A model generated the notes under the pieces. It did not search any database. It was not told where the DNA came from and saw only the letters and a list, made by a program, of their open reading frames with translations. The translations under genes were made by a program, and so were the position numbers. Shown piece by piece: positions 34,673-49,096 of a stretch of 64,000 nucleotides of DNA. How positions within the stretch are numbered: the first letter of the stretch is position 1; every line of letters starts with the position of its first letter. Origin of the DNA: Planctomycetota bacterium (lineage in GTDB: Bacteria > Planctomycetota > UBA11346); assembly GCA_028280785.1 (NCBI GenBank), contig JANQLF010000122.1, positions 23,627 through 87,626 of the forward strand, written 5' to 3'.

Positions 34673-35965
34673 GTGGCTGAACAAATCGATAGTGCCCCCG
34701 TCAAAGGTGTTCGTGATTTCTATCCCGATGACATGCGCGTGCGCAATTGGTTGTTTGAGCATTGGCGTGCAGTAGCCAAGCAATTTGGCTATGAAGAGTA
34801 CGATGCTTGTGTGCTCGAATCTGAATCGCTGTATGTGCGTAAGGCTGGTGATGAAATAGTTGGTCAACTATATAATTTTGCTGATAAAGGTGATCGTAAG
34901 GTTGCATTGCGACCAGAAATGACACCAAGTTTGGCACGTATGGTTTTAGCCAAGAAAAATAGTTTAGCCTTTCCACTGCGTTGGTTTTCCATTCCACAAT
35001 GTTTCCGTTACGAACGCATGCAAAAAGGTCGTAAACGTGAGCACTTTCAATGGAATATGGATTGCATCGGTTTAGACAGCGTTGCCGCAGAGGTCGAGTT
35101 AATGTCTGCGCAGGTGGCATTTTTACAGAATGTCGGTTTCCAAGTCAGTGCAGAGAAATGTGACATCGCATTTAAAGTTTCAAATCGTCAGGTCCTCCAG
35201 GATTATTTAGCAACATTAAATATCACTGGCGAAGATTTTGCCGCGGTCTGTGTCATTATCGATAAGCGTGATAAAATTGGTGATGAAGCTTGCGCTGAAT
35301 TATTGGCAGAAAAAAATGTCGATGGAGAAACTGCAGGGAAGATCCTCGATTTATTAAATGTTCGTGGGCTCGACGATTTAGCACGGGTAGCAGGCGAGGA
35401 AAATGCCGGTTATCAATCATTAAAAGCATTAATGGAATTAGCAGAAGCAAGTGGTATTGCTCATGCCATTCAAATCGATTGTTCTGTGGTGCGCGGTCTG
35501 TCGTATTATACCGGAACCGTCTGGGAATTATTCGATGAATCTGGATCGGTGCCACGCGCCATCGCCGGTGGCGGTCGCTATGATCGTTTAATGGAAACCT
35601 TTGGTGGCCAATCAGTGCCAATGGTAGGTTTTGGTTTTGGTGATGTGGTTATTGCATTATTGCTCGAAGAGCGCGGACTTATTCCTAACTCCGATGCACG
35701 TGTTGATGATTATATTTATCCAATGAATGAATCGGGTTTTGTTATTGCCAATAAAATTGCTGCAAAGCTTCGCACAGATGGTCAGAAAGTTTTAGTCGAT
35801 TATTCCTGTCGCCGCTTCAAACACGTGATTAAAGCGGCAGAAAACGCAGGCGCATCACGGATGTTTACCCTAGGTGATCAAGAAATTGAAGCGGGTATTG
35901 TTAAGGTTCGTACCATTGGTGCCGAACGCGTAGAAAACGACCATCCAATTTCAGAATTTACCTAG
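34673..35965 (+). CDS. hisS: histidine--tRNA ligase
   Basis: 430 aa; GVRDF, motif 2 FRYERMQKGRKREHFQWNMD and class II motif 3 region; GTG start at 34673 (in-frame ATG at 34652 is also possible). Confidence 0.85.
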   Translation: MAEQIDSAPVKGVRDFYPDDMRVRNWLFEHWRAVAKQFGYEEYDACVLESESLYVRKAGDEIVGQLYNFADKGDRKVALRPEMTPSLARMVLAKKNSLAFPLRWFSIPQCFRYERMQKGRKREHFQWNMDCIGLDSVAAEVELMSAQVAFLQNVGFQVSAEKCDIAFKVSNRQVLQDYLATLNITGEDFAAVCVIIDKRDKIGDEACAELLAEKNVDGETAGKILDLLNVRGLDDLARVAGEENAGYQSLKALMELAEASGIAHAIQIDCSVVRGLSYYTGTVWELFDESGSVPRAIAGGGRYDRLMETFGGQSVPMVGFGFGDVVIALLLEERGLIPNSDARVDDYIYPMNESGFVIANKIAAKLRTDGQKVLVDYSCRRFKHVIKAAENAGASRMFTLGDQEIEAGIVKVRTIGAERVENDHPISEFT

Positions 35966-36089
35966 TGTCGCTGTTGCTGACGCCGAGTGACGGTCGTGGC
36001 TATTTGCCACGAATTTTTCATAGCGAAAGCGGAGAAAAATAGAAACGACAAAGTCAGCGAGGGGCTTGGGGCATTGCCCCAAAACAAAA
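35966..36089 (+). repeat. REP-like repeat family member (124 bp copy)
   Basis: Homologous along its length to 44847-44957 and to the right half of 48800-49096; ends with hairpin GGGGCATTGCCCC then AAAACAAAAG. Confidence 0.6.
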
Positions 36090-36131
36090 GGACGTATTGA
36101 GAAAGATCATCAAATTAGCGAATTCTCTTAA
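36090..36131 (+). other. orphan diverged copy of hisS 3' end (14 codons incl. stop)
   Basis: Translates GRIEKDHQISEFS* versus native AERVENDHPISEFT*; several identical residues use different codons (Ser TCA vs AGC). Confidence 0.5.
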
Positions 36132-48500: not shown

Positions 48501-48799
48501 TCGTGTTCGACCGTATTCGTGAAAACATCAAGAAATACGGCAAGGCGATGATCGATACGATTGATAAAGCCATTGCTCAAACCATGAGCCGAACCATTTT
48601 AACCAGTTTGACCACTATTTTTGTAATCACCATTTTATTAATTTGGGGTGGTGAGGGTGTACGCTCATTCAGCGTGACCATGTTGGTCGGCTTAATTCTC
48701 GGTACTTATTCTTCGGTCTTTGTTGCATCACCATCGTTGTTGTTGTTTAAAGATCCAGAGCCAGAGGACGAGACGGACGAAGTAGTTCCCGGTACTTAG
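45524..48799 (+). CDS. secDF: fused protein-export membrane protein SecD-SecF with large periplasmic insertions
   Basis: 1091 aa; two 6-TM blocks with SecD/SecF conserved TM motifs ([45 protein letters not shown]). Confidence 0.8.
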   Translation: [1091 protein letters not shown]

Positions 48800-49096
48800 G
48801 TTTCGAGGGGCTCTGCCCCTCGTGCTCCCCCGCGACGGTTGCACGGTCAAGCCGCATCAAGATCGCGACTATTTTTCTCCGTTTAGAACTGCGAAAAATC
48901 CAGGTCAAGTAGACCTGACCGTCGCTCGGTCGTAGCCGGTTGCAGAAGCAACCGAAGAGCGCGCCGAGTTCTCGAGGCGGCGAGCACCGATGAATGGTCT
49001 GAGCTATATGCGAAGAATTTTTCGTAGCGTCAGCGTAGAAAAATAATGAAGACAACGCTCGCGGGGGAGCCCGAGGGGCAGAGCCCCTCGAAATAA
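48800..49096 (+). repeat. full-length BIME/MITE-like element with 35 bp terminal inverted repeats
   Basis: TTTCGAGGGGCTCTGCCCCTCGTGCTCCCCCGCGA at 48801-48835 versus reverse complement of 49059-49093 (1 mismatch). Several internal hairpins. Fills the exact interval between the secDF stop and the convergent regulator stop. Confidence 0.65.

Follow-up and report, generated by a model that had tools for sequence, protein, structure and literature searches.

Recoded gene ends behind a REP-like structured repeat in an uncultured Planctomycetota genome: a possible miniature cassette for gene 3' ends

Introduction

Several described genetic systems rebuild or displace the 3' end of a gene, or occupy the space directly behind it, and they are the background for an arrangement found in a 64,000-nt stretch (contig JANQLF010000122.1, positions 23,627 to 87,626; hereafter the window) of an uncultured Planctomycetota genome, in which a structured repeat, here called S, separates the ends of hisS, mutL and an ABC-F ATPase gene from second copies of these very ends. 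Integrative elements such as e14 in icd and the islands of tRNA genes rebuild the 3' end of their target gene, and tandem accretion is known from integrative and conjugative elements (ICE) and cis-mobilizable elements (CIME). Integron cassettes depend on the integrase IntI, the attI site and attC sites with the core sequences RYYYAAC and GTTRRRY. At Rhs and CdiA loci, C-terminal displacement leaves orphan toxin tips downstream. Repetitive extragenic palindromes (REPs) and their doublets (REPINs) are associated with REP-associated tyrosine transposases (RAYTs), enzymes whose action in vivo is, to our knowledge, still unresolved. REPs that touch or even supply stop codons have been described (PMC3733652). 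The REP/RAYT papers that we searched make no mention of an insertion footprint of REPs, and the full texts of the searched REP/REPIN/RAYT papers make none of a duplicated upstream gene end or of recoded gene ends; gene-end duplication by REP, RAYT or MITEs (miniature inverted-repeat transposable elements) is likewise not described in the literature searched.

In the following, T1 denotes the working tail of a gene, T2 the orphan tail downstream of S, and [T+S] the unit, where T spans the last 12-26 codons of the gene and the stop. The reading that we develop, and whose chances of being correct we regard as about even, is that of a miniature, non-autonomous integrative cassette, which delivers a new end to a gene and pushes the resident end aside. 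All evidence is comparative and comes from one clade of uncultured bacteria.

Duplicated gene ends in the window

The window has a G+C content of 43%, and the closest relatives of its MutL, HisS and ABC-F proteins are metagenomic sequences with 76%, 84% and 86% identity, respectively. Behind each of the three genes, the stop codon is followed by an S of 103-125 nt that ends in a hairpin and GAAACAAAAAG, and then by a second gene end. S is co-oriented with the preceding gene in all three cases, and the T2 stop lies at the position that matches the T1 stop. Apart from a tRNA 3' end, these tail duplications are the longest direct repeats of the 64 kb. A preliminary description had reported the order of stop, repeat and recoded tail at these three genes, all of which we found in place. 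The features are as follows.

34673-35965, plus strand: hisS (open reading frame list; Pfam tRNA-synt_His and HGTP_anticodon on orthologues)
35927-35965, plus strand: working tail T1 of hisS, last 13 codons, RVENDHPISEFT and stop (from the sequence)
35966-36090, plus strand: S of hisS, a hisS-type singlet (nhmmer E=3e-29)
36093-36131, plus strand: orphan T2 of hisS, RIEKDHQISEFS and stop, in phase with T1 and with the stop at the equal position
39597-41417, minus strand: mutL (open reading frame list)
39597-39677, minus strand: working tail T1 of mutL, HMEHCPHGRPTTLDLSWTELERRFQR and stop (from the sequence)
39494-39596, minus strand: S of mutL, mutL-type (from sequence and folding)
39413-39493, minus strand: orphan T2 of mutL, 26 residues equal to T1
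43251-44846, plus strand: ABC-F ATPase gene (open reading frame list)
44800-44846, plus strand: working tail T1 of the ABC-F gene (from the sequence)
44847-44958, plus strand: S of the ABC-F gene, a hisS-type singlet with a short hairpin 2 and a terminator-like hairpin 1 at 44874-44892 (nhmmer E=9e-23)
44959-45005, plus strand: orphan T2 of the ABC-F gene, RGTYSEYRDSKGLD and stop (from the sequence)

No S was found in the window behind the hisS, mutL and ABC-F orphans, where non-S sequence follows. The hisS orphan precedes a long inverted repeat that is likewise present in an S-free relative (L074), and an alignment for a degenerate S behind the mutL orphan scored 35 against a shuffle mean of 27.8 +/- 4.4, which is not significant.

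Collapsed strain heterogeneity, the assembly chimera that the preliminary description had named as its own possible undoing, has in its favor that the window derives from a metagenome-assembled genome and that strain variants of the array described below coexist in one sample. Against it stands a second assembly of run SRR20820735 (Logan), which is 100% identical to the window across 36185-48952, and the recurrence of the gene-tail/S architecture in five further lineages from other samples and other assemblers, so that six lineages, four samples and several assemblers are now represented; the contig names suggest that the relatives' assemblies are long-read. Moreover, a chimera would not put a structured 100-nt element between in-phase tails each time, and an artefact of this kind is in our view hardly credible.

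Divergence of the tails

The two mutL tails of the window share 65 of 81 nt, all 16 differences are synonymous, and the 26 residues are identical; among the codon switches are Ser AGT/TCG and Arg AGG,AGA/CGA,CGC. The ABC-F tails are identical in 42 of 47 nt and in 14 of 14 residues, all five differences again being synonymous, and the protein identity that had been claimed for both duplicates is hence borne out. Ten codons differ between the hisS tails, six of them synonymously (including Ser TCA/AGC) and four through conservative replacements, and every residue of the orphan lies inside the range of variation of orthologous HisS tails. Summed over eight tail pairs, 71 synonymous codon differences stand against five non-synonymous ones. 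Thirteen full-length mutL tails, five of them orphans, encode one and the same 26 residues; a sixth mutL orphan (in L077) is 5'-truncated and carries a single replacement (F->L) in a conserved FxR motif. Within a genome, mutL tails differ at 9-16 of 78 positions, just as much as tails from lineages that agree at only 41-50% of their mutL four-fold sites.

If orphans evolved neutrally, the probability that all changes are synonymous would be below 5e-5 for the mutL pair of the window, 2e-4 for that of L002, and 0.009 for the ABC-F pair. The Ser AGY/TCN switches in mutL and hisS call for protein-level selection along the way. For almost the whole time since they separated, both tails of a pair must therefore have belonged to working genes.

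A duplication that decayed afterwards is ruled out by the 71:5 ratio of codon differences and by these probabilities, and the dismissal of plain target-site duplication plus decay in the preliminary description is thereby upheld. Copies made by tandem duplication of [T+S] in situ, by error-prone fill-in or by retro-copying from mRNA 3' ends would be identical or randomly mutated at birth, and these mechanisms were discarded as well. The same fate met a diversity-generating retroelement, as had already been proposed: only 8 of the 21 changes start at an A, all four bases are affected, and the protein does not vary. For the Logan contig spanning 36185-48952, no reverse transcriptase domain was reported in any of the called genes.

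Direct selection on the orphans, either as small peptides or as alternative ends used after a programmed removal of [T1+S] from DNA or RNA, would also preserve the protein sequence, and it gains some appeal from the five of six mutL orphans that are perfect over 26 residues and from the in-frame ATG present in all five full-length mutL orphans. The ABC-F orphan, on the other hand, lacks an in-frame start codon, a terminator-like S hairpin precedes every orphan, the duplications start at any codon phase, and the L077 orphan has lost its 5' part and acquired the replacement in the FxR motif; furthermore, the protein obtained by a programmed removal would be unchanged and offer no evident advantage. 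We consider such a role of the orphans improbable.

Which tail is native to the host could not be read from codon usage, a check suggested earlier, for which a count by eye of the mutL tails alone was uninformative, or from the nearest relatives (HisS 84%, ABC-F 86% and MutL 76-79% amino acid identity), because those lineages are saturated at synonymous sites. Fragments of tails at foreign loci were absent from approximately 250 kb of related sequence, in which every tail copy was found at its own gene.

Structure and distribution of S

An alignment of 11 hisS-type copies from the window and its relatives revealed a common architecture that consists of a fully covarying closing stem (CTGAC...GTCAG), hairpin 1, hairpin 2, a terminal hairpin, and the single-stranded tail GAAACAAAAAG. 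In this four-helix model, 82% of the cells pair, compared with 65% when the partners are shuffled (0 of 500 shuffles reached the observed value) and at most 48% when they are slid, and double-sided changes occur in 15 of 23 pairs. The S of hisS accordingly comprises the closing stem, a terminator-like hairpin 1 that has a T-run, hairpin 2, the terminal hairpin GGGGCATTGCCCC and the tail AAAACAAAAG. The window contains five S arms, and hairpin 1 in three of them, namely those of hisS, ABC-F and the left arm of a doublet, accounts for the four best terminator-like matches of the 13.5-kb region.

The mutL-type S has one long AT-rich hairpin, followed by a terminal hairpin and tail as in the hisS type. 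In the window, GTTCCATGTGTTC follows the mutL stop, and then come the long hairpin, the terminal hairpin GAGACGGAGTCTC and the tail GAAACAAAAAGC; this copy has in common with the others only its 3' third (terminal hairpin and GAAACAAAAAG). The ends of S read CTSRCGCCGA... and ...GAAACAAAAAG, and core sites of the type RYYYAAC...GTTRRRY are lacking. Rfam 15 offered no family for S: the gathering score was reached nowhere in the window, and at E<=5 the segment 35800-49300 gave only a CRISPR-DR inside mutL, which was set aside as chance.

Copies of S inside one genome are 58-72% identical, and copies from different genomes are mostly less alike. S is also found elsewhere: as tail-less tandem arrays in L073 and L053, in which S lies directly at the 3' end of another S; as inverted copies that abut stop codons, namely of secDF in the window and of the ABC-F gene in L079; and, in L070, as one copy inside a heptanucleotide repeat. 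A fourth copy in the window had been described as full-length and free of a tail duplicate, of which only the latter is correct, since it is an inverted doublet of the approximately 120-nt unit rather than a longer parental element.

48800-49096, no strand assigned: inverted doublet of two S arms (REPIN-like), without a tail duplicate

This doublet fills the exact gap between the stops of secDF (48797-48799) and of a convergent gene (49097-49099), and its arms end at GAAAC or GAAAT.

In L079, an inverted S or doublet follows directly on the ABC-F stop (6240-6515) and is missing in the sister L076 (5702-5760), a presence/absence polymorphism of S without a tail duplicate. The same L079 contig also carries a hisS-type S3b (11915-11925, compared with L002 at 5040-5046) directly after ...CCCCGAAAC of the mutL-type S3a. 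The position of S3b and the arm ends of the window doublet hint at a functional S boundary after GAAAC instead of AAAAAG.

Scans with the S 3' motif retrieved 64 matches from genome contigs, nearly all of them due to chance and only L053 related, one true member (L070) from metagenome contigs, and chance matches only from viral contigs. The scanned set of species-representative genomes did not hold the source genome of the window.

Arrays of mutL tails and the comparison of strains

Tail arrays behind mutL were found in the following relatives.

L003: T1-S1-T2
L077: T1-S1-T2(truncated)...S2
L002: T1-S1-T2-S2-T3-S3
L076: T2-S2-T3-S3
L079: T*-S3

The contigs L002, L076 and L079 represent related strains from one metagenome with three, two and one mutL tails, respectively. 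Over the last approximately 600 nt of mutL and the array, L002 and L076 are 99.8% identical apart from one clean 184-nt indel, which is exactly [T1+S1] and lies at ...CTAGAA|CACATGG; the T2 that is a silent orphan in L002 therefore serves L076 as its working tail. The flanks in L079 are 96-98% identical and enclose a single tail followed by the distal S3. This S3 is common to the three strains at 96-99% identity, and the variation adjoins the gene body. The state gene-T-S without an orphan is represented by hisS of L072. The S1-type repeats of the deep lineages L002, L003 and L077 show 82-86% identity to one another but only 44-66% to S2 and S3 of the same array, a pattern that fits a movement of units between lineages.

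The clean [tail+repeat] indel and the allelic series of one, two and three units agree best with the second of two options offered in the preliminary description, a small module that carries a coding-competent gene end. Its first option, the remnants of large integrase-bearing islands in gene 3' ends of the e14/icd type of which only a shared terminus is left, follows an identical logic of duplication, and an apparently classical 18-kb tRNA-Gly island with two integrases and a 58-nt repeat does exist in the same window. Nevertheless, gain and loss occur in whole pieces of approximately 184 nt, the sequence between the tails is free of integrase or cargo remnants at all of approximately 10 loci, and one repeat family adjoins different genes and also occurs, without att-like context, as tandem arrays, inverted doublets and inside the heptanucleotide repeat. 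Island remnants are thus a very unlikely source of these arrays.

Integron-like capture would join a circular foreign [T+S] at the 3' end of a resident S in an S-by-S reaction, the first tail being native and the downstream tails passengers. Both sites would then possess the conserved hairpin and GAAACAAAAAG, the simplest situation for an enzyme; each tail precedes an S in L002, L076 and L077, and S does adjoin the 3' end of another S in the tandem arrays of L073 and L053. Yet the three orphans of the window have no S behind them, and the shared distal S3 with the variable units by the gene body is the opposite of what this capture predicts. We regard it as rather unlikely.

A stronger competitor, although still unlikely in our view, is that S alone inserts past the stop codon and duplicates 20-100 nt of its upstream flank, whereupon T1 is later overwritten by a diverged allele and T2 keeps the older spelling. 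The duplicated segment would then be whatever lies 5' of S and may be mostly non-coding, as at the AraC-family locus described below and for the post-stop bases of mutL; the A-rich 3' tail and the variable repeat length recall target-primed insertions; and mutL of L002 and L076 shows recombination-like patches (92-95% identity) as well as a replaced upstream segment. However, known bacterial transposition proceeds without duplications of 20-100 nt, and every case would require an import tract that stops exactly between T1 and S. The flanks of the L002/L076 indel are 99.8% identical, so T1, which is 10 nt off T2, was not imported with a gene tract. In addition, S1, S2 and S3 of one array are only 44-66% identical and hence are not copies of one another.

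Two further observations concern the surroundings of these arrays. Between the ABC-F gene and mutL, L002 (564-2517) and L076 differ wholly over approximately 2 kb that hold two hypothetical genes of approximately 250 aa, a strain-specific replaceable segment in strains that are otherwise 97-100% identical. In L077, another miniature element with terminal inverted repeats of approximately 23 nt (GGGATAGCCGAGTTGCACTCGGC...) lies at 2960-3150, between the mutL orphan and the next S.

A RAYT gene behind mutL and the junctions of S

In the relative L004, the mutL stop is directly followed by a gene that contains the motifs NHVH, WQ and YI..NP and reaches 83.3 bits with NF047646 (REP-associated tyrosine transposase; cut-off 80). 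The GGATCGCCGATCTCC motif of L004 recurs behind the mutL stop of L074, where a C-terminal RAYT remnant comes next, so that the RAYT locus sits exactly where other lineages have their mutL tail arrays. Beside the RAYT gene of L004 lies a 129-aa open reading frame (ORF129), the end of which is duplicated behind a 215-nt S-like element ending in CGAAACAACAAGCAAG; both differences in this tail pair are synonymous. A 26-nt hairpin-containing motif, ATGGATCGCCGATCTCCGAATCGGCA, precedes the RAYT start in L004 and has its reverse complement inside the RAYT coding sequence (4118-4143/4605-4632), and the RAYT of L074 is cut off at this motif.

The junction between S and the following tail is the exact 3' end of S each time, at hisS, ABC-F, two mutL junctions and ORF129 of L004. 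This fixed boundary, which arose independently at no fewer than five tail starts, points to an S-specific cleavage or joining activity, for which a RAYT would be the obvious candidate.

The working mutL tail of the window has at either end an arm of a 13-nt inverted repeat, GAACACATGGAAC / GTTCCATGTGTTC (39668-39680 / 39584-39596, minus strand): one arm crosses the junction of gene body and T1, and the other stands just past the stop. Its counterpart in L002 is found at the following positions, and equivalents exist in L003 and L077.

4500-4512 / 4586-4598 of L002: 13-nt inverted repeat

In L003 and L077, synonymous changes in the coding arm (GGAGC, GAG) are met by compensatory or wobble changes in the non-coding arm. 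This repeat could serve a guide-like recognition of the target, or it could form a stem in mRNA or single-stranded DNA; units of the hisS type lack it.

Proposed mechanism

Five observations underlie the cassette reading: the indel is modular, the alleles form a series, the tails show synonymous-only divergence, S is structured, and relatives carry RAYT genes behind mutL. S would be a REP-like structured non-coding element of approximately 100-125 nt that belongs to a planctomycete-clade RAYT (HUH tyrosine transposase) system, and the mobile unit would be [T+S] rather than S alone, comprising the last 12-26 codons of a particular gene, the stop, a few post-stop bases and S. Such a unit would enter the resident gene where T begins; the gene body would then read into the incoming T1 and end at the stop of the unit, which leaves the protein unchanged, and S after the new stop would supply a terminator-like hairpin. 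The resident tail T2 would be pushed downstream and become a silent orphan. This logic is that of the Campbell/attP integration through which integrative elements rebuild a target 3' end, shrunk to less than 200 nt and without a gene of its own. Up to the insertion, T1 would have been functional in the earlier hosts of the unit and T2 in the present host, and that is why differences would be found only where protein selection allows them.

With repeated insertion, units would pile up in such a way that the latest one adjoins the gene body. Slippage or recombination between tail starts may remove units and return an orphan to the role of working tail; loss of the orphan would leave gene-T-S, as at hisS of L072. 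Stacking, unit loss and orphan loss together could give all observed states, i.e., gene-T-S-T (three times in the window), gene-T-S, and longer arrays. We infer the enzyme, the transfer between strains or lineages, and the direction in which each event ran. The enzyme could be a RAYT acting at the fixed 3' end of S, or host recombination could act within the conserved start of the tail.

Several points weigh against this proposal. The S copies of a genome are only 58-72% identical, a sign more of an old and slow family than of an active one, and the sample is small (approximately 25 S copies from one clade). No RAYT gene was found in the 64-kb window, and the flanks of the L004 RAYT have in common with S only the ...GAAAACAAGCAAG / CGAAACAACAAGCAAG tails, a loose likeness. 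The 5' flanks of the tail starts (TAGAA, CGATT, GCCGA, TGCAAA) share no motif, which makes a single site-specific enzyme at these places hard to picture, and a "guide" complementary to the junction is at chance level for the hisS, ABC-F and ORF129 cases. Tail starts are identical over 11-26 nt within each genome, and the L002/L076 indel may equally be a deletion between tail starts that are identical over 26 nt; the gain of units among the three strains follows from parsimony. Finally, the L079 tail differs from T3 by 10 nt where two or three differences would be expected under plain orthology, and an extra collapse or chimera event must be assumed.

The cassette reading can be taken further to an undescribed class of mobile DNA, which we put forward tentatively and with more doubt than conviction. 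In these sub-200-nt "gene-end cassettes", a RAYT-type HUH enzyme would mobilize a REP-like hairpin module in trans; the module would bring the tail of its target gene and, in the mutL type, a 13-nt junction guide; it would home to the same gene across strains and species and silently swap end and terminator, and excision would restore the old end.

Comparison with described systems

REP/REPIN-RAYT systems resemble S in that short structured repeats lie just past stop codons, between co-oriented or convergent genes, in that singlets, tandem arrays and an inverted doublet are all seen, and perhaps also in that a RAYT gene above the NCBIfam cut-off stands beside such repeats in relatives. S differs from them through the lack of a constant GTAG or CGTC tag (the equivalent position reads GTAG, ATAG, GCAG, GGAG or GCCG), its greater length (100-125 nt, four helices) and the low identity of copies within a genome. 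The replicating unit of REPINs is the doublet; one doublet occurs here (48800-49096), and all tail-associated copies of S are singlets.

With elements of the e14/icd type, S units share the carriage of a replacement gene end, the old end left as a direct-repeat orphan, an open reading frame kept intact by the element-side copy, and tandem arrays with repeated gene ends between them after repeated insertion. In contrast to these elements, a non-coding hairpin module of approximately 100 nt (103-125 nt between the tails) without integrase or cargo is found here, and one S family adjoins at least four different gene tails. Integron cassettes likewise combine a short coding piece with a structured element that resembles a recombination site and is more conserved in fold than in sequence, and their arrays, like those of mutL tails, appear to gain units at the promoter-proximal end; no gene for IntI was found near 35.9-49.1 kb, and the coding piece of S units is a gene tail fused in frame to the resident gene and not a free open reading frame. 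At Rhs/CdiA loci, an incoming 3' end also joins at a conserved stretch and displaces the old 3' end as an orphan, from which arrays result. The changed protein is the point there; in the present case, the protein stays the same and it is the repeat that forms the payload.

The IS200/IS605 family and palindrome-associated transposable elements (PATEs) share with S a subterminal hairpin and, behind it at the boundary of the element, a short fixed 3' tail, as well as a relative of the Y1 HUH transposase, and the 13-nt sequence of the mutL type that is complementary to the target junction recalls guide-based site recognition. IS200/IS605 elements, however, make no flanking duplication and insert 3' of a fixed tetra- or pentanucleotide, whereas direct repeats of 21-100 nt and no common motif before the tail starts are seen here. 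S units lack at least one defining feature of each known system, be it the integrase, the attC cores, the GTAG tag or the fixed tetranucleotide.

If the cassette reading is true, tiny non-coding repeats can spread cost-free through essential genes (hisS, mutL, ABC-F) by means of synonymous replacement ends, and both the insertion footprint of REPs and the in vivo role of RAYTs would gain a concrete, testable form. Gene-end cassettes, if real, would represent an integron-like or attP-like strategy for gene 3' ends without any gene in the element. The arrangement would account for puzzling "pseudogene" fragments beside core genes in metagenome-derived genomes; the displaced tails would be datable fossils of earlier alleles, and the arrays a record of strain-level exchange at a mismatch-repair gene. 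It also suggests a compact natural design for the scarless tagging or replacement of 3' ends.

Other features of the window

The S tail CAAAACAAAAGG of hisS (36079-36090) has a perfect inverted copy, CCTTTTGTTTTG, at 36203-36214, 113 nt downstream, and the two bracket the hisS orphan. Read on the minus strand, this inverted copy is the tail of an S-like remnant of approximately 50 nt behind an AraC-family gene, a locus that may be a further, minor case of tail duplication.

36181-36273, minus strand: AraC-family minor case (17/21-nt match, shuffle p=0.004)
36253-36273, minus strand: gene end and post-stop bases
36202-36252, minus strand: approximately 50 nt ending in CAAAACAAAAGG
36181-36201, minus strand: 17/21-nt copy of the gene end

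Far from the duplicated tails, the 3' 58 nt of a tRNA-Gly(GCC) (12044-12120) are repeated with 95% identity at 30178-30235. The interval of approximately 18 kb between them (12044-30235) encodes two tyrosine integrases, a TIR-domain protein, an AAA_21/SMC-like ATPase, a DUF927 protein and a 1676-aa Type ISP restriction-modification enzyme, and it looks like a classical integrated defence island. At 3993-4359, three diverged 34-nt coding repeats (TGC...TATCC.AAATGCAAAGG), 135-198 nt apart, probably represent a repeated Cys-containing protein motif.

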